IMG/VR virus record: IMGVR_UViG_3300028833_000071
DNA: 64,000 nt
Direction: 5' to 3' (one strand)
Source: a virus
Lineage: Duplodnaviria; Caudoviricetes
Positions 17,116 through 62,082 of this stretch are shown piece by piece. A model generated the notes under the pieces. The model saw nothing but the letters and a program-made list of their open reading frames with translations. It was not told the origin of the DNA and did not search any database. Position 1 is the first letter of the stretch; each line of letters begins with the position of its first letter. The position numbers and the translations under genes were made by a program.

Positions 17116-17550
17116 ATGGATAAAACAAAAAACATAATGAAGTACGACGAATACATGGACAAAGAGTGCATTCCGATTTGCGATGCATTGAACGAGTTGC
17201 CTGGTGTGACCACATTCGAATCATGTTGTGGTCATCTTCAAAGACGATATGTTGTGTATCTTTATACCGACAACCCATATTCGATGGCTGTAATCGCAAG
17301 AGCATTGGACAGAAGATACCTTCCCGCAAAATCTACATGGAAAGTGACAATCGAAACAATTGATGTTGAAAGGATTCCACAGTTCTGCATCGGTATATAT
17401 TCTGAAGAACCATTCAAAGATTATGATACAATGATGCATGATGTAAACGAGGTTGTTGAATCAATAAATTATTGGAGACAACCTGAATTTTATGACTATT
17501 TCAAGTTCACTAAATACAATAAAGATGTAAGTGAATCTTTGTGCCAATAA
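17116..17550 (+). CDS. Hypothetical protein, near-identical paralog of 54066..54473
   Basis: Shared TFESCCGH..VVYLYTDNPYSMAVIARALDRRYLP. Confidence 0.75.
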   Translation: MDKTKNIMKYDEYMDKECIPICDALNELPGVTTFESCCGHLQRRYVVYLYTDNPYSMAVIARALDRRYLPAKSTWKVTIETIDVERIPQFCIGIYSEEPFKDYDTMMHDVNEVVESINYWRQPEFYDYFKFTKYNKDVSESLCQ

Positions 17551-17563: not shown

Positions 17564-17571
17564 AAAAAAAA

Positions 17572-17640
17572 TTGTATATTTAGAATAGAGCAATTCATCC
17601 CCACCTGAAGGAAGGGGACTTCTTGCTTGATTAATTAAAA
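17572..17640 (-). mobile_element. IS200/IS605 left-end remnant with outward TTGTATATT promoter
   Basis: TTGTATATTTAG.ATAGAGCAATTCATCCC hairpin..TTCTTGCT matches 25002-25059. Confidence 0.8.
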
Positions 17641-17667: not shown

Positions 17668-18402
17668 ATGAATGAAAAACAAAAAAATATGGAGGAATTT
17701 TGTCAGAGGGAAAAAGGTACTAAGATAAAGACTTTTTTCACCTCTGACCTGTAGCTACATTTCAGTCATTCTTCCATCTTATATTTCCATCCAGAAAGAA
17801 GAGAAGCCTGTGGTATTACATTAGAAGAGTTGCGACAGGATAAAGATGCAGCAATTGAAAAACACGATGAATGGTTAATTCAATTATGGAATAATACTGT
17901 TAAAAAATGTGACAACATCTATATTCTTGGTGATTTTTGCCTTGGTAACAAAGAGCGTACCGAACAAATTCTTAAAAGATTAAAGGGTAATAAATACCTT
18001 ATCAGAGGAAACCATGACAAAAGTTGTAATGGTCTTGAAAATTATTTCAAATGGGTCGGTGATATTAAAGAGGTTAAATTTACCAATAATCAATATAAAT
18101 TTATTGACCCAAATGAGACCTTCTGTGTTGAAATATGCCATTATCCATTATTAACTTGGAATAGAAGACCACATGGTACTGTACACCTCCATGGGCATTG
18201 CCATGGTACTATCGAAGATTTTAATACAAATTCAAAGGAATTAAGGCTTGATGTTGGCCTTGATACCAAAATTGCCAATTATAATTTAATTGATTTGGAA
18301 ACAATTTATAAATATTTTATCGAAATTCGCAATAAATCAGGCGTTTCAACATTCAATGATTATAACGAATGGCTTATGAAAGAACAAGGCTTTAGAATGT
18401 GA
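17668..18402 (+). CDS. Calcineurin-like metallophosphoesterase interrupted by in-frame TAG (17752-17754)
   Basis: FFTSDL*LHFSH, ILGD, RGNHD, CHYP, HLHGHCH all in one frame. Confidence 0.85.
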
Positions 18403-18978: not shown

Positions 18979-19350
18979 ATGAACATTTATTATTTGGGAT
19001 TTAAGTTTAAGGCTGATGTAATCGTATTAAAGGTCACAGCCAATCAATTGGCCAATGAATTGTTGGGCAATGCCGATAATATAATGGATTTGAAATGGAA
19101 CCATGAACACAAAGATACTGAATTTGGAATAAGTGAACAAGGGTATACCAATCATTTTTATATTGATGGAGAACGATATGTCGTTGAATTTTCAGATGAC
19201 CCACATTTCTTGAATTTGTATGAATATCATAAGGAAGACGATGGAACATGGTATGGTGAAAATAGAGTTGCTGAAAATATTCCATGGATTTGCCTCAAAA
19301 TAGAAGACGAAAACGGTAATGAAATTTATAATTTAAATAATGAAATATAA
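18979..19350 (+). CDS. Hypothetical protein, paralog of 19902..20279
   Basis: Shared KVTANQL..ELLGN..DDPHF..GNEIYNLNNEI. Confidence 0.75.
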   Translation: MNIYYLGFKFKADVIVLKVTANQLANELLGNADNIMDLKWNHEHKDTEFGISEQGYTNHFYIDGERYVVEFSDDPHFLNLYEYHKEDDGTWYGENRVAENIPWICLKIEDENGNEIYNLNNEI

Positions 19351-19352
19351 TT

Positions 19353-19637
19353 ATGATATATCCATTAACAAAAGAACATCTTACTAAAGACGATATTAAG
19401 GTTGTTAAACACCTAAATGCTATTAATAATCTTTTTAAAAAGGGTGACTTAACCGTATCATCTTTATTTGCTGATACTGGTTCATTAAAATTGTTAAAAA
19501 CTATAGATGGTATTGATTATGAAGTTGAATCTTATTGTCATATTATTTGTGATGGTGGTGACCCTGATTCGTCTGGATTTTTTGGTATACATTCTCAAGA
19601 AGAATTGGAAAATTTATACGAAGAAGAAAATGTTTAA
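19353..19637 (+). CDS. Hypothetical protein
   Basis: ORF in operon. Confidence 0.6.
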   Translation: MIYPLTKEHLTKDDIKVVKHLNAINNLFKKGDLTVSSLFADTGSLKLLKTIDGIDYEVESYCHIICDGGDPDSSGFFGIHSQEELENLYEEENV

Positions 19638-19671
19638 AATAAAAAAAAAAGAAAAATGTTTGTAATTTAAT

Positions 19672-19881
19672 ATGGATACAGTAAAGGTTTATATTCAGCA
19701 TTACCAATGTGGTCTTAGCGGCGAACTTATAGATTGCAGACATTATAAAGGAGAATGCAGGGAATGTTCAAACCATCATAAGAGTTTTGTCGAAGAAAAA
19801 AATGTGACAAAAGATGAACTTTTAGAATTAATAAATAACGCATCAGATTGGTATGATGTTTTAGAAAAATATGAAAAATAA
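19672..19881 (+). CDS. Small Cys-rich hypothetical protein
   Basis: ORF in operon. Confidence 0.55.
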   Translation: MDTVKVYIQHYQCGLSGELIDCRHYKGECRECSNHHKSFVEEKNVTKDELLELINNASDWYDVLEKYEK

Positions 19882-19901
19882 AAAGGTATTATTATAAATT
19901 A

Positions 19902-20279
19902 ATGAATGTTTATTATTTAGCGTTTAGATATGAAAAAGACGTAAATGTTGTAAAAGTTACTGCAAATCAATTGGGTAATGAATTATTAGGCAATACTGAT
20001 GATATTTTTGCCTTAAAATGGGATAAAGAACGTGAAGAAGACGAATTTGGTATTAGTGACCAAGGATTTACAAAACATTTATGGTTTGATGGTAAAGATT
20101 ATGTAATAGAGTTTGCTGATGACCCTCATTTCTTCAATATTTATGAATACGCTAAAGACGAAGAAGAGCCAAATAAATGGTATGGCGAACATATAGTAGC
20201 AAGAAACATTCCTTGGGTCTGTATTAAAATTGAAGATGAGGACGGAAATGAAATTTATAATTTGAATAATGAAATTTAA
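19902..20279 (+). CDS. Hypothetical protein, paralog of 18979..19350
   Basis: Colinear similarity. Confidence 0.75.
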   Translation: MNVYYLAFRYEKDVNVVKVTANQLGNELLGNTDDIFALKWDKEREEDEFGISDQGFTKHLWFDGKDYVIEFADDPHFFNIYEYAKDEEEPNKWYGEHIVARNIPWVCIKIEDEDGNEIYNLNNEI

Positions 20280-23640: not shown

Positions 23641-23661
23641 TTTGGCACAGTTTTTGTATAA
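23641..23661 (+). promoter_or_regulatory. sigma54-like promoter interrupted by IS insertion; also the TnpB guide-encoding flank
   Basis: TTTGGCACAGTTTTTGTATAA abuts IS right end. Confidence 0.7.
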
Positions 23662-25067
23662 CTGACATACTCCCACGATTGAAATCGTGGGGTTCTTAAT
23701 TTCTTAAGAACCTGTATTTATCAACAAGTTATTCTTGTTGACCACGCTTGACACATCAAGTGGCGCTGTCAGCAGCGCAAGGTGATTTTGTTCATATCGC
23801 TTCAATATGTTAATCGCAGCGTTTAAATCACGGTCTATTACTATGGAATCGGAAATCTGTACCGTCCTGTCGGACAGTCCAACCCTTTCCTCAAACAATT
23901 TGCCGGTCAGACAGTTTTGTTGTGTTGTCCATTTCTCGTTAATGGAAATAAGTTCAGTATTGCTGTTCTGACATTTGTATGACAAATATTCCATAAATGT
24001 GGCTATTGATGATTCACTGAAGTTGCGAGAATTCTTCGTTAACTTGTTGCTTCTCTTCTCCATCAGTGTCTTCACACTCAAGTCACCAACTACAATTGTC
24101 TTGTAGTTCATATTCACCAATTTCTTGCTCTGAATATGCAGAGTCTGTTTTATCTGTGCATTTTTCCTTTTATACAGTTTGTTCTTCACCTTCTTTAACT
24201 TGCAGTGACGGCTGCTGCCCTTTGTGCATTTATCCATTTTGGACTGAACTGACGATATCTGCTTGCGGAAATACTTGTTTATCCTTCTTGCTTTGTTCGG
24301 TATCGTGACAACATTGCCCAAATTATCGACACAGTTGCACAGGTTTTTAATGCCAAGGTCAATCGCAAGTACCTTGTTTTCAGTTGTCAACACCTCTTCT
24401 TCGTCAACATGGTTTGCTACACCTAAGTCAAGCAGATATTTTCCGTTGACCATCTTCAGTTTGACTTCCTTGACAGTTAAAGACTTGTAGTCAATATTCG
24501 GGATACCTTTATAAGTTACGGCAATACCATTTACTTTCAATGTGGTGTTATTTATGAATTTCCATCCCGATTGGTTGTACACAACAGTGTGAAATTTGTC
24601 AACATCGTTGATTTTATGGGGCGGTTTCGCTGTATGGTCTTTTTTAACCAAAGTGAAAAAAGACTTGTATGAGGAATAGATTTCCTTGGCAACCCTTTGG
24701 CTTGCCTTGGAGTTAAGGCAAGTTAAAAAGGGATTTTCTTTTCTGAGGAAGGTTATATCTCTGTCAAGGTCAAATTCGGTTTTTATCTTTCCTGTTGTTT
24801 CATAGGTTTGGTTTTCGATGTCGATAAGCAGGTTATACAAAAGGTTCCTTGCAAGGGACAGGTTTTTCAGTTCCTGCTCCTGCTGACCATTCGGGAAAAG
24901 TCTTAATGTATATGTCCTGTACTGTATCATCACTTATAAATAGTATAATTATTAAAAAAAGTCAAGAAATTAATAAAAAATTTTATTTATTTAATAAAAA
25001 AATTGTATATTTAGGATAGAGCAATTCATCCCACGACTAAAGTGGTGGGCTTTCTTGCTCGTTTATC
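23662..25067 (-). mobile_element. IS200/IS605-family element, tnpB only (IS1341-like)
   Basis: IS608-like ends on minus strand. LE: TTAC|14 nt-AAAG-hairpin. RE: GAAC-hairpin-AGTATGTCAG. Confidence 0.88.
23704..24933 (-). CDS. tnpB: TnpB RNA-guided endonuclease
   Basis: YTLRLFPN..Q N-terminus, LAIDLG, IVVGDL, INEKWTTQ, DRDLNAAINIL. Confidence 0.93.
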   Translation of the reverse strand: MMIQYRTYTLRLFPNGQQEQELKNLSLARNLLYNLLIDIENQTYETTGKIKTEFDLDRDITFLRKENPFLTCLNSKASQRVAKEIYSSYKSFFTLVKKDHTAKPPHKINDVDKFHTVVYNQSGWKFINNTTLKVNGIAVTYKGIPNIDYKSLTVKEVKLKMVNGKYLLDLGVANHVDEEEVLTTENKVLAIDLGIKNLCNCVDNLGNVVTIPNKARRINKYFRKQISSVQSKMDKCTKGSSRHCKLKKVKNKLYKRKNAQIKQTLHIQSKKLVNMNYKTIVVGDLSVKTLMEKRSNKLTKNSRNFSESSIATFMEYLSYKCQNSNTELISINEKWTTQQNCLTGKLFEERVGLSDRTVQISDSIVIDRDLNAAINILKRYEQNHLALLTAPLDVSSVVNKNNLLINTGS

Positions 25068-25103
25068 GTAAAAGAAATAGAAATTAATTAAAATTTAAAA
25101 AAC

Positions 25104-26612
25104 ATGAATAAAAGATTCGTATTAAGCAAAGAAAGTAACCCAAACTACCTTTGCAGTATTTGTAGACTTGGTGAAACATTCCCAATTGAGGGCGCTGATA
25201 AACTTGTTAAGACCGTGGTAAACGGTTATGATATTGTTATTGGCAAGGATTACAAGGAGGGGGATATTGTAGTTTATTTCCCCGTTGAAACCGCTATTAG
25301 CGAGATGTATCTTTCAGCAAACAATTTGTTTGAGCGTTCAGAATTTGAGCGTAATGCAAATGCTGACTCTGTAAAGGAATACCTTATTGAATTGGAGAAT
25401 GCTGATAATGAGAATGACACACAAAAGGCTGAAGAGTTGTCAGCTAAGATTAAATCAATGTGTGGATTTTTCAATAAACATGGACGTGTTCGTATTTTGA
25501 AACTTCGTGGACAATATTCCATGGGATTTATTGCAGGTGTTGATTCACTTGTTAACTATGACCCGACATTGAAAGATACTGATTGGGAGAGTCTTGTGGG
25601 AACACAATTTGACTATATTGATGACAAGGAGTTCTGCCATAAGTATATACCAATGATTAATGGAAGACGAGGACAAAATCAAAACCATGATTCAAAGGGC
25701 AAATCAATATGGAAGTGGAGAATGAGAAAATTGAAGAAATTCAATAGACTTGTTGATGGACAATTTGAATTTCATTATTCTACTAAAATGCTTCCAGAGC
25801 ATATTAATGAGTTCAAGCCTGATGATATTGTTGCCATAAGCACTAAAATTCATGGAACGAGTGTGATATTGTCTAACATCCTTGTTAATAGGAAACTTTC
25901 AATTTGGGAGAAAATCAAAAAGTTCTTTGGTTTTAAAGTACCTATGACTGAATATGGTAACATATATTCTTCAAGAAGTGTTATCAAGAATCAATACTTG
26001 GATAAAGATAGACGTGGTTTCTATGGCGTTGATATATGGGGTTGTGTAAACAGAGATTTTTCACCTTATCTATCTGAAGGTATGACCGTATATGGCGAAA
26101 TTGCAGGTTATCTTGAGAATTCAACTAAAATGATTCAAAAGCAGCACGATTATGGCTGCAAACCTGGCCATTGGAAATTTATGCCATATCGAATTACCGA
26201 GACTGATGTTGATGGTAATAAGAAAGAGTGGGAACTTGCAGAAGTTGATGCATGGACACATAAACTTGTCGAAGAGCACCCTGAACTTGCCGATAAGACC
26301 CTTTTCTTGGATATTATCTATCAAGGCCGTTTCGGTGATATGTACCCTGATGTTCCAGAAGATGAAAATTGGAACAAGAATATTCTTGCAAGAATGAAGG
26401 GTGATAGGGAACTTATCCTTATGGAGGAAGATGAACCTATGTGCAAAAACAAAGTTCCTCGTGAGGGTGTTGTTGTCAGACTTGTAAATGACCAATTTGC
26501 AAGGGCATGGAAATTAAAGAGTGCAAGACATTATTCACTAGAAGCTAAACAGCACGATAATGGTGAGGTTGATATGGAAGAGGCTGATTCCTCACAAGAA
26601 GAGAATGCTTAA
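25104..26612 (+). CDS. ATP-dependent RNA ligase (DRB0094/Rnl2-like with N-terminal OB domain)
   Basis: PIEGADKL, TKIHGTS (KxxG), YGEIAG, REGVVVR, WKLKS. Confidence 0.85.
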   Translation: MNKRFVLSKESNPNYLCSICRLGETFPIEGADKLVKTVVNGYDIVIGKDYKEGDIVVYFPVETAISEMYLSANNLFERSEFERNANADSVKEYLIELENADNENDTQKAEELSAKIKSMCGFFNKHGRVRILKLRGQYSMGFIAGVDSLVNYDPTLKDTDWESLVGTQFDYIDDKEFCHKYIPMINGRRGQNQNHDSKGKSIWKWRMRKLKKFNRLVDGQFEFHYSTKMLPEHINEFKPDDIVAISTKIHGTSVILSNILVNRKLSIWEKIKKFFGFKVPMTEYGNIYSSRSVIKNQYLDKDRRGFYGVDIWGCVNRDFSPYLSEGMTVYGEIAGYLENSTKMIQKQHDYGCKPGHWKFMPYRITETDVDGNKKEWELAEVDAWTHKLVEEHPELADKTLFLDIIYQGRFGDMYPDVPEDENWNKNILARMKGDRELILMEEDEPMCKNKVPREGVVVRLVNDQFARAWKLKSARHYSLEAKQHDNGEVDMEEADSSQEENA

Positions 26613-27471: not shown

Positions 27472-27488
27472 TTTGGCATAGAATTTGA
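27472..27488 (+). promoter_or_regulatory. sigma54-like motif
   Basis: TTTGGCATA-GAAT-TTGA. Confidence 0.6.
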
Positions 27489-31012: not shown

Positions 31013-31387
31013 ATGAAAGACCTAAAAGAGCCAATAGAATTATTTGGATATGAGTGTGGTAAAGGGTGGTTTCCTTATATTAAGGAGGCACAGGATTTAA
31101 TGGATGAGTACAACAAAGAACATCCTGACGAAGAAGAGGTGAAGTTTACACAGGTAAAAGAAAAATTCGGTACATTATGTTTATACTTAAACAGATATCC
31201 TGATGATTTTAGCGATAAAATATGGGAAATCGAGAAGAAAAGTTATGATACATGTGAATTTTGTGGTGCAAAGGGTGCTACTAATAAAGCAACACACGGA
31301 TGGTATATGACATTATGTGATAAATGCCGTCAGGAAGAAATTGTAAATTACAATAAAAGGTTTAATATTGATAACAATGGAAAATAA
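31013..31387 (+). CDS. Conserved phage protein with Zn-ribbon
   Basis: ECGKGW, QVKEKFGTL, CEFCG..GW..TLC. Confidence 0.75.
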   Translation: MKDLKEPIELFGYECGKGWFPYIKEAQDLMDEYNKEHPDEEEVKFTQVKEKFGTLCLYLNRYPDDFSDKIWEIEKKSYDTCEFCGAKGATNKATHGWYMTLCDKCRQEEIVNYNKRFNIDNNGK

Positions 31388-32483
31388 AATATGTGTCTAT
31401 GCTATTTGCAAAAATGAATCAAAGTTTGTTGAGCAATGGTATAAGAGTATGTCAGAAGCTGATAGCATTGTTGTTCTTGACACAGGTTCAACCGATGATA
31501 CTGTTGAAAAATTAAAAAAATTAGGTGTTAAAGTTGAACAAAAAATAATTGAACCGTGGGGATTTGGCGATGCAAGAAACGAATCAATGAAACTTATTCC
31601 TGACGACTGTAACATATTGGTTTGTACTGATTTAGATGAATATTTTGAAGAAGGATGGGCAAAACCATTGAGGGAAAAATGGGTCGAAGGCGTACATAAC
31701 AGATGTGTTTATACATATTATATACGACCAGACCATTTTATTTATTATGATAAAATCCATGGCCGTAATTATTATTGGAAATACCCGATACACGAAATGC
31801 TTTGCTGTGATAAAAGTGTTGGCTTAACGACTTTATATTTGCAAAATGAGATTGTTTTACACCACGATAGAGATGCTTCAAAAAGCAGAGAAAGTTATCT
31901 TAGATTGCTTGAACGTAGGGTTAAAGAAAATGAAAATGATTTTATTGGGATAATTTATCTTGTTGGTGAATATCAAGCAGTTGGAAGACACGAAGATGTT
32001 TTGTCCCTATTGGAAACAGTTGACCTTGATAAATGTGATAATGACCTTTATAGACTATCCATCGCAAAAATAAAAGCAGAAACATTATTACATTTTGGGC
32101 GTACAAAAGATTGTATTGGATGGATTAATTATTGTATGCGTATTAATAAATCATACCGAGAATTATATTATCTTTTGGCTAAATGTTTTGAGGAAAATAA
32201 TGACCTTATGTATTATACATTATTAAAAGGTATAGAAAATTCCACATATCATCAGGATTGGTTTGAGAAGGAATATTTGTGGAAAGGTGGTATGTACTAT
32301 GATTTATTGTCTTTAACTGCATATTATTCTGGGCATATAGCTGAAAGTTTGATTTATGCAGGAATGGCTTTAAAAATTGAACCTAATAATGATAGATATA
32401 AGCAAAATATCAATTCAATAATTAATAATTTAAGTGAAGAAGAAATAATAAAATATAGGCAAAATATCAAAGATGGAAAATAA
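31377..32483 (+). CDS. GT2 glycosyltransferase with TPR-like C-terminus
   Basis: ICKNE, DTGSTD, ARN, DLDE. Confidence 0.88.
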   Translation: MENKICVYAICKNESKFVEQWYKSMSEADSIVVLDTGSTDDTVEKLKKLGVKVEQKIIEPWGFGDARNESMKLIPDDCNILVCTDLDEYFEEGWAKPLREKWVEGVHNRCVYTYYIRPDHFIYYDKIHGRNYYWKYPIHEMLCCDKSVGLTTLYLQNEIVLHHDRDASKSRESYLRLLERRVKENENDFIGIIYLVGEYQAVGRHEDVLSLLETVDLDKCDNDLYRLSIAKIKAETLLHFGRTKDCIGWINYCMRINKSYRELYYLLAKCFEENNDLMYYTLLKGIENSTYHQDWFEKEYLWKGGMYYDLLSLTAYYSGHIAESLIYAGMALKIEPNNDRYKQNINSIINNLSEEEIIKYRQNIKDGK

Positions 32484-33612
32484 AATATGCGTTTATGCTA
32501 TTTGTAAAAACGAGTCACAATTCGTTGAGAAATGGGCCAAAAGTATGTTAGAGGCCGATAGCGTTGTTGTTCTTGATACAGGTTCAACTGATGATACAGT
32601 TGAAAGATTGAAAAGTTTTGGTATAACTGTTGAACAGAAAATAATTGAACCATGGCGTTTTGATGTGGCAAGAAATGAATCAATGAAACTAATACCCGAT
32701 GATTGCAACATATTAGTTTGCACTGATTTAGACGAAATATTAGAGCCAGGATGGGCTAAAGTTCTTAGGGAAAGATGGATTGACGGCGTTCATAAAAGAT
32801 GTTGGTATAAATATGTTTGGAGCCATATGCCCGATGGAAGTAATGGTAGAATATTTTGGTATAATAAAATCCATGTTAAAGGTTATGAATGGCAATATCC
32901 TGTTCATGAATTATTGACTCTTATACCAGGTTATGAGAAAAAAGTTGACGGGCTTAAAGACTTATATATTGATGAAGACGGTTTTAAACTCCATCATTAT
33001 CCTGCACCCAAGACAAGCAGAAGTACTTATTTACCGCTTTTAGAATTAAGAGTTAAAGAATACCCATTGGATGTTTCAGGATGGCATTATTTAACACATC
33101 AATATTTTTATGAGGCCAAATATGAAAATTGTATTGAATGCGGTAAGAAAACGCTCGAATTATTTGATAAAGAATTAACTCCAATTGACAAGTCCAATCT
33201 GTGTTTATTTATCGGTTATTCATATAAAGCATTGAAGCTATATGAAGAGGCTTTGCAATGGTTTTATAAAGGTATTACCGAAGATAAAACTTATATAGAA
33301 AATTATCTTGAAGTCGCTGATTTATATTTATTTAGTATTGATAAAAAAGATAAATACGATTTAGCATATAATATATTGAAAAAATGTTTTAAAAACAGTT
33401 ATAGGCATTACTCTTGGCTGGAAAAAGATGACTCATTTACTTATAGGCCGTATGATTTATTATCAATTGCTGCATATTATTCAGGCAAAAAGCAAGAATC
33501 ATTATATTATGCATTCTTGGCAAGAGAAAATAATAAAGCAGATAAACGTCTTGAAGATAATGTTAATATTATTATGGAAAATTTGGGGAAAAATAATAAT
33601 TTTATTTTATAA
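32473..33612 (+). CDS. GT2 glycosyltransferase with TPR-like C-terminus (tandem paralog)
   Basis: Same motifs; N-terminal about 100 aa nearly identical to upstream gene. Confidence 0.88.
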   Translation: MENKICVYAICKNESQFVEKWAKSMLEADSVVVLDTGSTDDTVERLKSFGITVEQKIIEPWRFDVARNESMKLIPDDCNILVCTDLDEILEPGWAKVLRERWIDGVHKRCWYKYVWSHMPDGSNGRIFWYNKIHVKGYEWQYPVHELLTLIPGYEKKVDGLKDLYIDEDGFKLHHYPAPKTSRSTYLPLLELRVKEYPLDVSGWHYLTHQYFYEAKYENCIECGKKTLELFDKELTPIDKSNLCLFIGYSYKALKLYEEALQWFYKGITEDKTYIENYLEVADLYLFSIDKKDKYDLAYNILKKCFKNSYRHYSWLEKDDSFTYRPYDLLSIAAYYSGKKQESLYYAFLARENNKADKRLEDNVNIIMENLGKNNNFIL

Positions 33613-36293: not shown

Positions 36294-36587
36294 GATTCGG
36301 CTGCGGGAAAACCCACTTCTTTAGATGTGGGATGAAAGCAGCCTTAACAAAATATTTTGTTTTTTCAAATATTTTTAGTATATTTGTACAGAAGTTCCGA
36401 GTTAGGGATAGTACTAACTACCACCAAGGGGTTTGCCTTGCAGAGATGGAAATGCATCTCAAAAAAATGGGGACAGAGAAGGACTATCTCTGTGTGGAGT
36501 TAAAGTAAGTGGTTGCACTATGCTTCCCCAAGCACTTCGGTGCTATGCTCCCAAGAACCCCACTATTTCAATAGTGGGAGTAGTCAG
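36294..36587 (+). mobile_element. Non-autonomous IS605-type element encoding only an omegaRNA-like RNA
   Basis: TTAT|14 nt-AAAA-hairpin LE; GAAC-hairpin-AGTAGTCAG RE; removal restores ACTATTTAT-AAGG. Confidence 0.8.
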
Positions 36588-36607
36588 AAGGAAACAGATG
36601 TTATGAA
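36392..36607 (+). ncRNA. Stand-alone TnpB omegaRNA-like RNA plus flanking guide
   Basis: Homologous to 61895-62062 with compensatory changes; GACTAT/GTAGTC pseudoknot potential; promoter motif at 36377. Confidence 0.7.
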
Positions 36608-39230: not shown

Positions 39231-39247
39231 TTTGGCACGGTTTTTGT
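39231..39247 (+). promoter_or_regulatory. sigma54-like motif
   Basis: TTTGGCACG-GTTT-TTGT. Confidence 0.7.
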
Positions 39248-39262
39248 AATAACCATTTTGAA

Positions 39263-39312
39263 GTGAACTACCCCTCCCTAAAGTGAGGGGCTTCTTGCTT
39301 GATTAATTAAAA
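39263..39312 (-). mobile_element. Single-hairpin IS605-end mini-element
   Basis: GTGAACTACCCC hairpin GGGG + CTTCTTGCTTGATTAATTAAAA (tail identical to 17619-17640). Confidence 0.7.
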
Positions 39313-39323
39313 ATTAAATTAAA

Positions 39324-39656
39324 ATGACAAAAGCACAAATTGAAACTCTTTTGAGCGAAAAATCTAATGAGTTCAACAACAAAGTGTATGAACTAAAAAA
39401 GAATTATCAAGAATAAAGACAAAAATTATTGAATGAGTATGCTATTGAGTATTCAGAATTTAAAATTGGTGACATTCTTCAATGTAGTGATGTTTACATT
39501 AAAGTCGAAAAAATTTTAGGCGGTTATGACAATCATCAAGACTTATATTATCCAATATATGTTGGCCCTCAATTGACAAAGCGGCTTAAACCCAAAAAAG
39601 ATGGTTCCGCATTTACATTCTTTGGTTATGGTAGAGAAATAATTAAAATTAAATAA
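39324..39656 (+). pseudogene. Hypothetical gene with in-frame TAA at 39414-39416
   Basis: MTKAQIETLL..NYQE*RQKLLNEYA in one frame. Confidence 0.65.
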
Positions 39657-47911: not shown

Positions 47912-48745
47912 ATGACAAAAGAAGAAATTATCAACAATTTATTTGAAGATTTTACTTGTAAGTTTTGGAAATTGCTAAAGGAAGAAAATCTTGAAGTTAC
48001 TGAAGTAACAAATGATGACATTAAGAACATCTTAGTTGAATTTTTCAACAAAGAAACACTTACACAGGCTGAAAGTTATTTTAGTGATGCGTTAGAGAAT
48101 TATATTGATGGAAGTTACGATAAAGTCAATGGCGAGCTTACCTATGAAGAAAAACAAAAGACACCCGAAAACGACATTGAATATGTTTGGTATAAATGCC
48201 GTATGGAACTTGAAATGGCTGAGAAATGGGTTGAAGCAAACGGTAAGGCCCATACTGACGAAGAGGCTGCAATAATTGCTGCCGACAAATGGTGTGAACT
48301 TCTTTTCGGTTGGCACTTACAAGACAATGGAGCTATTAACGAAGACCATCCTGGCGGCTTTACTGCCTGTGCTTTTGCAACTGTTCTTGCTGATGATGCT
48401 AAACAAGAAATTACCGAGGAAATGAAGCAAAAAGCACATGAACTGTTTAAGCAATACTATTTAAAATTTATTCATTTCAGTAATACTTTTGATTTGAGAG
48501 ATATAGAATGGCTTAGAACAACCTTTAAAAGTAGTGACGAAAAGAAATTCAATTGGGAACATGGATTTAACTATAACATGTATTGTGACTATGACCCAAG
48601 TTGGGCCTTATACACTATCCTTTACAATGCAGGTATTCCAGAAAAGAACATTGATTGTATCTGCCCATGGAAAACAGGAATTTCAATTAGAACCGTTGAC
48701 AACTCAGTTAGGTATCATACTTATCAACATGTAACTGACCTATGA
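47912..48745 (+). CDS. Hypothetical protein, paralog of 57314..58159
   Basis: Shared DKWCELLFGWHLQDNGA, MYCDY.P, CPWKTGISI; sigma54-like motif at 47864. Confidence 0.75.
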   Translation: MTKEEIINNLFEDFTCKFWKLLKEENLEVTEVTNDDIKNILVEFFNKETLTQAESYFSDALENYIDGSYDKVNGELTYEEKQKTPENDIEYVWYKCRMELEMAEKWVEANGKAHTDEEAAIIAADKWCELLFGWHLQDNGAINEDHPGGFTACAFATVLADDAKQEITEEMKQKAHELFKQYYLKFIHFSNTFDLRDIEWLRTTFKSSDEKKFNWEHGFNYNMYCDYDPSWALYTILYNAGIPEKNIDCICPWKTGISIRTVDNSVRYHTYQHVTDL

Positions 48746-48975
48746 AAAAGATTTTTTGTGTTGAAAGATGGCTTAACGAAACAAAACCATCAAGAGACGG
48801 ATGGTTCTACGGAAACGAATGGTGGAAAATCGGTAAGCTTTCATTCATTGAGGAATATGAAGACGAAGAATGTTTCAAAGAAACACTTACAAGAATGATT
48901 GACAGGGGCGAAATAGTAAGTAGAGTGTTTATCAAAATTGAACCTGATAATTATAAACCAAGAATAACACTTTAA
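48742..48975 (+). CDS. Hypothetical protein
   Basis: Coupled ORF. Confidence 0.55.
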   Translation: MKKIFCVERWLNETKPSRDGWFYGNEWWKIGKLSFIEEYEDEECFKETLTRMIDRGEIVSRVFIKIEPDNYKPRITL

Positions 48976-50907: not shown

Positions 50908-50967
50908 CTGACATACTCCCACGATTGAAATCGTGGGGTTCTTAACTTTTTTAAGAACTTGTATTTG
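50908..50967 (-). mobile_element. Solo right end of the tnpB element
   Basis: CTGACATACTCCCACGATTGAAATCGTGGGGTTCTTAA identical to 23662-23699, similarity continues about 20 nt. Confidence 0.85.
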
Positions 50968-51045
50968 TAAAAAATGGTTTGAGATACTTGAATAGTTTGG
51001 CACGGTTTTTGATAGGCTAAAAGTAGAATATTAAAAATTAAAATT

Positions 51046-53016: not shown

Positions 53017-53038
53017 TTTGGCATAGTTTTTGTATATT
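53017..53038 (+). promoter_or_regulatory. sigma54-like motif fused to TTGTATATT
   Basis: TTTGGCATA-GTTT-TTGTATATT. Confidence 0.7.
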
Positions 53039-54065: not shown

Positions 54066-54473
54066 GTGACTATGAAATACGATGAATATATGGATAAAGA
54101 ATGCATTCATGTCTGTGATGCATTGAATGAACTTCCAGATGTAAGAACATTCGAGTCTTGTTGCGGTCATCTGAAAAGAAGATATGTTGTGTATCTTTAC
54201 ACAGACAACCCATATTCAATGGCTGTCATTGCAAGAGCTTTAGATAGAAGGTATCTGCCAACAAAATTACGTTGGGAAACAACGATTGAAACAATAGATG
54301 TGGAGAGAACGCCGCAGTTCTGTATTGGCATATATTCGGAAGATACATTTGAAGATTATGAGACGATGATGCATGATGTCAATGAAGTGACTGATTCAAT
54401 AAGATATTGGGCACAACCAGAGTTTTATGAACACTTCAAGTTCAACAAGTACAATAAAAAAGATAAAGCATAA
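54066..54473 (+). CDS. Paralog of 17116..17550
   Basis: Near-identical sequence. Confidence 0.75.
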   Translation: MTMKYDEYMDKECIHVCDALNELPDVRTFESCCGHLKRRYVVYLYTDNPYSMAVIARALDRRYLPTKLRWETTIETIDVERTPQFCIGIYSEDTFEDYETMMHDVNEVTDSIRYWAQPEFYEHFKFNKYNKKDKA

Positions 54474-57313: not shown

Positions 57314-58159
57314 ATGGAAAAACTGATACAAAACACGATTGAAGATTTCCTTGCAGATTTTCATAATCTGGAAATAGAAAATGACATTAAAATCAATGAA
57401 CTTAATAATGATATTATTAAGGAAATTTTAATTGAATTCTTTAATAAGAAAACATTTTCAGAAGCGGATGAATACTATTATCAATCATTAGATGATTATG
57501 TGACGGGTAAAAATGAGCATATCAATTGGAATCTTGATAGAAAAGAAGTTGAGCAAACAATTGAATATAAGAGATGGAAAAGATACAGCACAATTTCAAG
57601 AATTTGGTATGTATGCCGTAGGAATAATAATCTATCACAATGTTGGACTAAAATAAATGGCAAAACGCATACAGATGAAGAAGCGGCTAAAATAGCATCT
57701 GACAAATGGTGTGAATTGCTATTTGGATGGCATCTTCAAGACAATGGGGCCCTGAATGAAACACATGGTGGCGGCTTTCCTGCTTGTGCTCTTGGAACAA
57801 TCCTTGCCGAGGAATCTAAAAAAAATATAACCGAGGATATGAAACAAAAAGCCCATGAACTTCTTCAAGAATACTATAAAAGATTAATCCACTACAGTAA
57901 TACAGGAGATTATAAAGACATTGAATGGCTTAAAACAACCCTGAAACCAATAAAGGAAGAATATGATTGGAAATTTGGATTTGACGACGATATGTATTGT
58001 GACTATAATCCATGTTGGGCCCTCTACATAATCCTCGAAAATGCAGGAATACCCGAAAGAGTTATTGACAATATCTGTCCATGGAAAACGGGAATATCCA
58101 TAAGAATTGACGATAATGCTGTTATGTATAATACATATCAATCTCGTAAAGAATTATGA
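57314..58159 (+). CDS. Paralog of 47912..48745
   Basis: Colinear similarity. Confidence 0.75.
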   Translation: MEKLIQNTIEDFLADFHNLEIENDIKINELNNDIIKEILIEFFNKKTFSEADEYYYQSLDDYVTGKNEHINWNLDRKEVEQTIEYKRWKRYSTISRIWYVCRRNNNLSQCWTKINGKTHTDEEAAKIASDKWCELLFGWHLQDNGALNETHGGGFPACALGTILAEESKKNITEDMKQKAHELLQEYYKRLIHYSNTGDYKDIEWLKTTLKPIKEEYDWKFGFDDDMYCDYNPCWALYIILENAGIPERVIDNICPWKTGISIRIDDNAVMYNTYQSRKEL

Positions 58160-58238
58160 TTAACGTTTAATAATATATTCTATATCTAAATAATTAAAAT
58201 ATTTTTTGTATATTTTATCTAAACAAATAATTTAAATT

Positions 58239-61439: not shown

Positions 61440-61841
61440 ATGGAAAAAATATATATTTTAGAAGAAGAAAATTTACAAGAAAATTCTTGTTCAAATGTGG
61501 GTGATAAAATGAATTTTGTTAATCAATACATACATATACAAGAACTGAATGCACAAAAACGATTGATTGATAGTATTCTTGAAGATTATAAAAAGGAAGT
61601 TGTACGAATAATGACAAGTGAAGATTCTATGACAACTGAAGATTATCATTATCTTTTTACACTTAAGGAAGTTAAAAATTATCTATTAAGAGAGCGGCTT
61701 TCGATAAACAACTCTCTTTCGGAATGGAATACATTTGATAAATGTACATTAAACCAAATCATTGATTATATTAACTCATTCAAAAACGATTCTATAATTC
61801 AATGCGAAGAGAAAAGTCTCAAACCACAATTAAACCTTTAA
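61440..61841 (+). CDS. Hypothetical protein
   Basis: ORF. Confidence 0.55.
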   Translation: MEKIYILEEENLQENSCSNVGDKMNFVNQYIHIQELNAQKRLIDSILEDYKKEVVRIMTSEDSMTTEDYHYLFTLKEVKNYLLRERLSINNSLSEWNTFDKCTLNQIIDYINSFKNDSIIQCEEKSLKPQLNL

Positions 61842-62082
61842 CAAAATATTTTGTTTTTGGGGAATATTTTTGTATATTAATGGTAGAAAATCAAAGTTCC
61901 GGGTTGGGGACAGTACCAACTGCCAAGGTGGGGCTTGCCACCATTGGGACAGGGGTGGACTACTCCTGTGTGGAGTTAAAGTAAACGAATGGGCTATGCT
62001 TCCCAAAAGCACAATGTGCTTGCTCCCAAGGACCCCACGATTTTAACTGTGGGAGTAGTCAGGGCCAATATCTTGACCCACA
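61838..62082 (+). ncRNA. Second stand-alone omegaRNA-like locus (promoter, scaffold, RE, guide), no left end
   Basis: TTAACAAAATATTTTGTTTTT + TTGTATATT, scaffold homologous to 36392-36587, ends GGGAGTAGTCAG at 62062. Confidence 0.7.

Follow-up and report, generated by a model that had tools for sequence, protein, structure and literature searches.

The window, i.e., the whole 64,000-nucleotide stretch of the viral record IMGVR_UViG_3300028833_000071 (Caudoviricetes) analysed here, carries at positions 23662-25067 on the minus strand a 1406-bp element of the IS200/IS605 family that contains tnpB and lacks tnpA. We propose, with a probability of about 0.75, that this is a tnpB-only element whose guide is derived from a phage promoter and whose TnpB would cut the empty allele of its own insertion site, leading to homing of the element into that allele or to its retention there.

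The boundaries of the element were defined by comparing eight independent insertions, 1383-1406 bp in length: the one in the window and those at L011, L012/13, L014, L016, L017/18, L019 and L029. In all eight, the left flank ends in TTAC and is followed by GA(T/A)(A/T)A..GCAAGAAAGCCCAC and an imperfect hairpin, and the right end reads CGTG(G/T)GAGTATGTCAG, after which the next 21 nt are unrelated among the loci. The right ends of the seven other insertions terminate in GTATGTCAG, followed by unrelated DNA. Because these seven insertions share their ends with that of the window, both ends, the TTAC and the position of the guide template are fixed. Contigs from other runs end exactly at 23662 and at 25071, and the ends claimed in the first-pass annotation, TCAG at 23662 and TTAC at 25068-25071, are confirmed by both the eight insertions and the contig breaks. 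The element was inserted 3' of the fixed TTAC (25068..25071, minus strand, read 25071->25068), the target and putative TAM, which flanks the left end outside the element in 8/8 insertions; no target duplication is found. The left end (24931..25067, minus strand) includes the subterminal imperfect hairpin at 25030-25049 and a family-conserved ACTATTTAT box just before the tnpB start codon. The right end (23662..23835, minus strand), about 174 nt long and possibly reaching 23879, comprises an omegaRNA-type scaffold, within which lies the second subterminal imperfect hairpin (23672-23691, minus strand), and ends with GGGAGTATGTCAG. A gene for the Y1 transposase TnpA is absent from the 1406 bp, in which tnpB is the sole open reading frame, and from every neighbourhood seen; given its absence from the element, the latter is filed as non-autonomous and IS1341-like. 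The closest other insertion (L011) is 92% identical at the DNA level and occupies a different site, which indicates that the family moved recently.

The tnpB gene (23704..24930, minus strand, read 24930->23704) encodes 408 amino acids with the Pfam domains OrfB_IS605 (PF01385, 1.6e-15), Cas12f1-like TNB (PF07282, 2.3e-9) and HTH_OrfB_IS605 (PF12323), and its residues 1-377 match the structures of ISDra2 TnpB (8BF8, 8EXA and 8H1J; E 4.6e-10). The reading frame is intact and shows 100% identity between contigs of several samples, and most of the 2458 homologous matches are exactly 408 amino acids long. Throughout the family, D191 of RuvC-I and D368 of RuvC-III (in DRDLN) are invariant and one of the four zinc-finger cysteines is left, while the position of the RuvC-II glutamate is taken by G282, followed by D283 (Glu in a single family member). 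Exactly this Glu-to-Gly change in RuvC-II characterizes large TnpB clades that are conserved and predicted to be active through a relocated glutamate, and TnpB branches without the zinc finger as well as virus-specific rearranged branches are also described (Altae-Tran et al., 2023; PMC10691335). A TnpB with a RuvC-II glycine and no zinc finger is plausibly of this published type, and its activity is predicted on the strength of those clades. Conserved glutamates that could compensate for the lost one are E306, E326, E332 and E380. The AF2 model, built with 15 close homologues, has a pLDDT of 71 overall and below 50 for residues 332-408. Phages often carry TnpB genes: a tblastn search found TnpBs in 210 of 50,697 phage records, all at less than 60% identity, and TnpB is also found in epsilon crAss-like phages (PMC11054128).

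The core of the scaffold (23835->23662) is a multi-stem structure that runs up to the right end of the element and shares ~130 nt with the 3' end of tnpB, an overlap typical of omegaRNA scaffolds. Nine family members, including one relative at 55% identity, were aligned over the 220 nt that precede the right end (alignment A2), and the resulting fold consists of 62 pairs with 96% of cells paired. In this alignment, 18 pairs are changed on both sides, compared to 7.7 +/- 1.9 in shuffled alignments, none of 500 of which reached 18, and to 2-7 in controls with slid partners. Covariation in the scaffold is thus strong. Searches of Rfam retrieved no family that matches the scaffold and nothing else relevant. 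OmegaRNA is generated by TnpB from its own mRNA (PMC10278001), and the continuation of the transcript into the right flank is a rule of the family (PMC10278001, PMC10055086). None of the contigs assembled from two RNA and two DNA runs spans position 23662, so that these contigs are uninformative on both omegaRNA extension and excision.

The DNA that directly abuts the right end is a copy of a repeated promoter-like motif. This motif, TGGCAYRNTTTTTG, is found 12 times in strict form in the window, against an expectation of 1.1, always on the plus strand and 27-47 nt upstream of a start codon save where an IS-derived piece intervenes, and once more in a degenerate 13th copy at 27472; the 12 other promoter copies counted in the first-pass annotation are consequently 11 strict ones plus the degenerate one. 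Its copy number, strand and position suggest that the motif functions as a promoter. The 12 sites, at 12661-53037, resemble sigma-54 promoters (TGGCAC-N5-TTG) but have T or A for the C of the -12 GC. The copy adjacent to the element, TTTGGCACAGTTTTTGTATAA (23641..23661, plus strand), is the reverse complement of the 21 nt directly 3' of the right end. On the other side of the element lies a gene (25104..26612, plus strand) for an RNA-ligase-like protein of 502 amino acids with a PHA02142 OB-fold domain, which the insertion separates from the promoter-like motif. When the element is removed by joining 23661 to 25068, the promoter-leader junction quoted in the first-pass annotation is obtained, with the motif 36 nt upstream of the ligase start codon, inside the range of the other copies and with a leader like theirs. 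In relatives without the element, i.e., L032, which has the nearest non-identical ligase (81% identity) and the motif TATGGCACAGTTTTTGATTAG, and L002 (57% identity), a promoter-like motif is found directly upstream of the ligase gene. Since both keep the motif before the ligase, the promoter-ligase arrangement is ancestral and was split by the element. The window derives from a virus-like contig of the sheep rumen. Contigs that encode the same proteins reach 164 kb, and the window stretch is present in both DNA and RNA libraries from sheep gut; megablast of the window against cultured phages returned no match and no near relative.

The insertion also brings potential expression signals between promoter and ligase. 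Directly after the split promoter, the right-end stems, read on the opposite strand, form two terminator-like hairpins (23671-23713, plus strand), and the left end contains an outward-facing TTGTATATTTAG box (25003-25014, plus strand) that points at the ligase gene. At its other sites, too, the family carries this box and these hairpins, which were therefore not made for this site but may make the insertion tolerable.

Nothing indicates that the promoter was targeted by the insertion. The seven other family insertions lie in unrelated contexts. Recurrent targeting of promoters by the family was considered and rejected, as the TTTGGCAC in the guide of L016 is coding sequence and the other guides are unrelated. 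The window contains about 66 intergenic TTAC/GTAA sites, of which five, including the occupied one, are in an interval between promoter and start codon, and the position of the insertion is consequently not statistically striking. In a tightly packed phage genome, the sites where insertions are tolerated are mostly such intervals, and the guide matches a promoter because the element happened to land there.

Several other IS605-derived pieces are present in the genome, beside at least three other promoter-like sites. At 50908-50966 (minus strand) is a solo right end that corresponds to the last 59 nt of the same scaffold at 95% identity. With GTAA at 50967-50970, it stands on the minus strand directly after TTAC and is followed by ACCACACCCCAATGTTAGTT, and 29 nt separate it from the promoter copy at 50996, which lies downstream of it; it is apparently the remnant of a second insertion of this family from which tnpB and the left end are gone. 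The region 17565-17640 holds a solo left end in the minus orientation, which is 97% identical over 37 nt, has a hairpin with compensated stem changes, keeps the outward TTGTATATTTAG and lies directly upstream of a gene that starts at 17669. Downstream of the promoter copy at 39231, the leader up to the start codon at 39326 is lengthened from ~30 to 74 nt by a hairpin-only IS605-like piece (39254-39312), in which the hairpin is flanked by a left-end-like GCAAGAAG and a right-end-like TAGTTCAC. Two copies of a protein-free IS605-like element of ~290 nt were also found at 36294-36588 and ~61790-62063 (plus strand), with the layout TTAT, left-end hairpin, structured middle and terminal GGGAGTAGTCAG. 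The last ~35 nt of this element resemble the right end of the tnpB element, while the rest of its scaffold differs, for which reason another TnpB, encoded elsewhere in the genome, may be the one that uses it. A second intergenic motif, TTGTGCCA-N5-6-TATATAAT with a subsequent A-run, is present in four plus-strand copies (17538, 37487, 56955 and 62435) and may be another class of promoter. Several pairs of diverged direct repeats of 200-300 nt with 70-80% identity (31377-32772, 18979-20279, 48227-48754 / 57644-58168 and 17137-17436 / 54072-54371) indicate paralogous gene pairs in the phage.

The predicted guide template of the tnpB element is the 21-nt right flank (23661->23641, minus strand). 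Compared to the 11 other strict copies of the promoter motif, it has 2, 3, 3, 3, 3, 4, 5, 5, 5, 5 and 6 mismatches, and it has 6 to the degenerate copy at 27472. Nine of these 11 copies have at least two mismatches in the 12 TTAC-proximal nt, whereas the copy at 53037 has one. As claimed earlier, no other copy has an adjacent TTAC (0/12 in the window), the bases at the TAM position being TCTA, CACC, TGGT, TATA, CTTA, ATAA, AATA, TCTC, TTAT, TTTC, TTAG and TTTC. At a GTAA frequency of 0.004 per position, only ~0.05 TTAC neighbours are expected for 12 sites; the absence of TTAC is thus what chance predicts and is evidence of neither avoidance nor design. Among the ~30 promoter-like sites in the 327 kb of the window and its relatives, none has TTAC, including a site of L033 that matches the guide at 20 of 21 positions. 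The scan for TTAC plus guide matches suggested by the first-pass annotation returned none in the window, its relatives or the public collections: the exact rejoined 25-mer and TTAC with an 11-nt seed and promoter were not found in IMG/VR, TTAC with a 12-nt seed and promoter was not found in metagenome contigs of JGI, and TTAC with 16 nt of the guide was not found in 185,579 prokaryotic genomes. Nor was an empty allele found in IMG/VR, the JGI metagenome contigs, the prokaryotic genomes or the contigs that encode an identical ligase. The last-named are either occupied or end inside the left-end hairpin, and every contig that shows DNA upstream of the identical ligase (four of the five places described) is occupied. 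The contigs from the two RNA and two DNA runs contain no joint across the element.

Based on this anatomy and the properties of characterized TnpBs, we propose the following sequence of events. The element was inserted 3' of the bottom-strand TTAC, exactly at the downstream edge of the RNA-ligase promoter. The 3' region of the tnpB mRNA may then be processed into an omegaRNA that consists of the scaffold (23835->23662) and a 16-21-nt guide from the flank (23661->23641). The complex of TnpB and this putative omegaRNA would recognize TTAC plus the 21-mer, a combination that would exist only in the uninterrupted allele; the other promoter copies, without TTAC and with different TAM-proximal bases, would not be targets. 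During co-infection with an element-free phage, TnpB would cut the empty allele, whose repair would use the occupied genome as template (homing), and after TnpA-mediated excision, the empty site would be cut and the element restored (retention). TnpB is known to cut where a TAM adjoins a match to the flank-derived guide and thereby to drive the retention and spread of transposons (PMC10055086, PMC10690162), and a 2026 review (PMC13565253, Table 1) already names transposon homing between phages in the same cell among the modes to be expected. The processing of the omegaRNA, its extension into the flank, the nuclease activity and the homing itself are all predictions for the window element.

The first-pass annotation had inferred homing against empty alleles together with potential multi-site cutting or repression at the promoters of competing phages. 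The former fits the anatomy of the element and the rules of its family, whereas the latter is unsupported, as the 2-6 mismatches of the other copies are mostly TTAC-proximal and TTAC was found at none of them. Only the uninterrupted version of this site looks cuttable. A ribonucleoprotein that cuts or blocks several promoters of competing relatives, or tunes those of its own phage, is in our estimate very unlikely. The guide is indeed near the promoter consensus, with 2-3 mismatches to five of the phage's own copies and a single one to the L033 site; the Glu-to-Gly change and the loss of the zinc finger would leave a binding-only TnpB possible; and TAM-dependent promoter repressors derived from TnpB, the TldRs, are known (PMC10705468). 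Against these points stand the lack of TTAC at all ~30 sites, the seed mismatches in nine of the 11 strict copies and the absence of TTAC-plus-guide patterns from IMG/VR, the JGI contigs and prokaryotic genomes; in one TnpB system, a single mismatch is compatible with TnpB action only if the TAM is the cognate one and otherwise abolishes it (PMC11043419). The element is also mobile with typical ends, unlike the immobilized TldRs. A form of this reading with promoter-directed exclusion, in which the guide represents the consensus promoter of a rumen phage group, promoter copies of co-infecting relatives that are followed by GTAA would be cut, or silenced by a binding-only TnpB, and the IS605 pieces could record repeated invasions of promoter edges, is very improbable, too.

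Two further explanations dispense with promoter targeting. The element could be an inert passenger, stranded without tnpA and with a TnpB that is inactive or irrelevant, at a site that merely tolerates the insertion. The missing tnpA and the loss of the RuvC-II glutamate and the zinc finger agree with this, as does the occupied state of all contigs that show DNA upstream of the identical ligase, which would be expected of a fixed neutral insertion; the solo right end and the solo left end further indicate that such insertions do rot in this phage. However, tnpB is intact and identical across contigs from several samples, the family is under clear purifying selection that includes compensatory changes in the scaffold, and the TnpB clades with the same RuvC-II change are conserved and predicted to be active (PMC10691335), all of which make an inert passenger unlikely. 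Alternatively, the element could have been kept as a co-opted expression cassette because its ends rewire the ligase gene: transcription from the split promoter would end at the hairpins of the right end, and the promoter-like box that faces outward from the left end would drive the ligase. The two hairpins do stand directly after the split promoter, and the left-end unit with its outward box also stands alone before the gene at 17669, but box and hairpins occur family-wide in unrelated contexts and are not adaptations to this site. We regard such a cassette as quite unlikely; it would in any case be compatible with homing.

Among known systems, the window element is close to ISDra2- and IS608-type elements (Karvelis 2021, cited in PMC11054128; Meers 2023, PMC10055086). 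Like them, it encodes the domains of TnpB, has an imperfect hairpin near each end and is inserted 3' of a fixed tetranucleotide, which is TTAC in IS608 as well, without duplicating it; a structured RNA extends from the 3' end of tnpB to the right end, and the predicted guide equals the right flank. Unlike them, the window element has no tnpA, its RuvC-II Glu is changed to Gly, its zinc finger is lost, and it is lodged in a promoter of an uncultured rumen phage; its TnpB has only 23-28% protein identity to characterized TnpBs. The RIIr TnpB clades (PMC10691335) are alike in the RuvC-II Glu-to-Gly change, the retention of DRDxN in RuvC-III and, in some branches, the loss of the zinc finger, and some rearranged branches are virus-specific; the likeness of the window TnpB to them is one of motifs. 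With TldRs (Wiegand et al., PMC10705468), the window protein shares membership in the TnpB family and a guide that matches a promoter. TldRs, however, are immobilized, lack RuvC residues or the C-terminus and act on the TAM-flanked promoter of another gene, whereas the window element is mobile and has both RuvC-I and RuvC-III, and a promoter target with an adjacent TAM was not found. Identity as a TldR-type repressor was accordingly rejected: the family is mobile and retains RuvC-I and RuvC-III, and no TTAC-flanked promoter was found in the window, its relatives or public collections. The free-standing T-even homing endonucleases SegF, SegB and Mob (PMC13565253) provide a functional parallel, in that the allele of a rival phage is cut during co-infection and the gene is copied in by repair, with marker exclusion as a result, which is what would be expected here. 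They differ in that they recognize their sites as proteins, whereas the window element would do so by a guide RNA and a TAM, and it would owe its self-immunity to the insertion, which parts the TAM from the target.

For an element of this kind, homing and retention are the textbook expectation, which fits the anatomy and is partly supported; the element looks like a phage TnpB homing element of the ordinary kind, if a neat one, and reveals no new mechanism. It contributes a compact 408-amino-acid TnpB with a TTAC TAM, a RuvC-II glycine and no zinc finger, a published type that is predicted to be active. As a transposase-less TnpB element of a large uncultured rumen phage that is fully delimited, with its ends, TAM, scaffold and guide all legible by comparison, it lends itself to tests of RNA-guided homing between phages.
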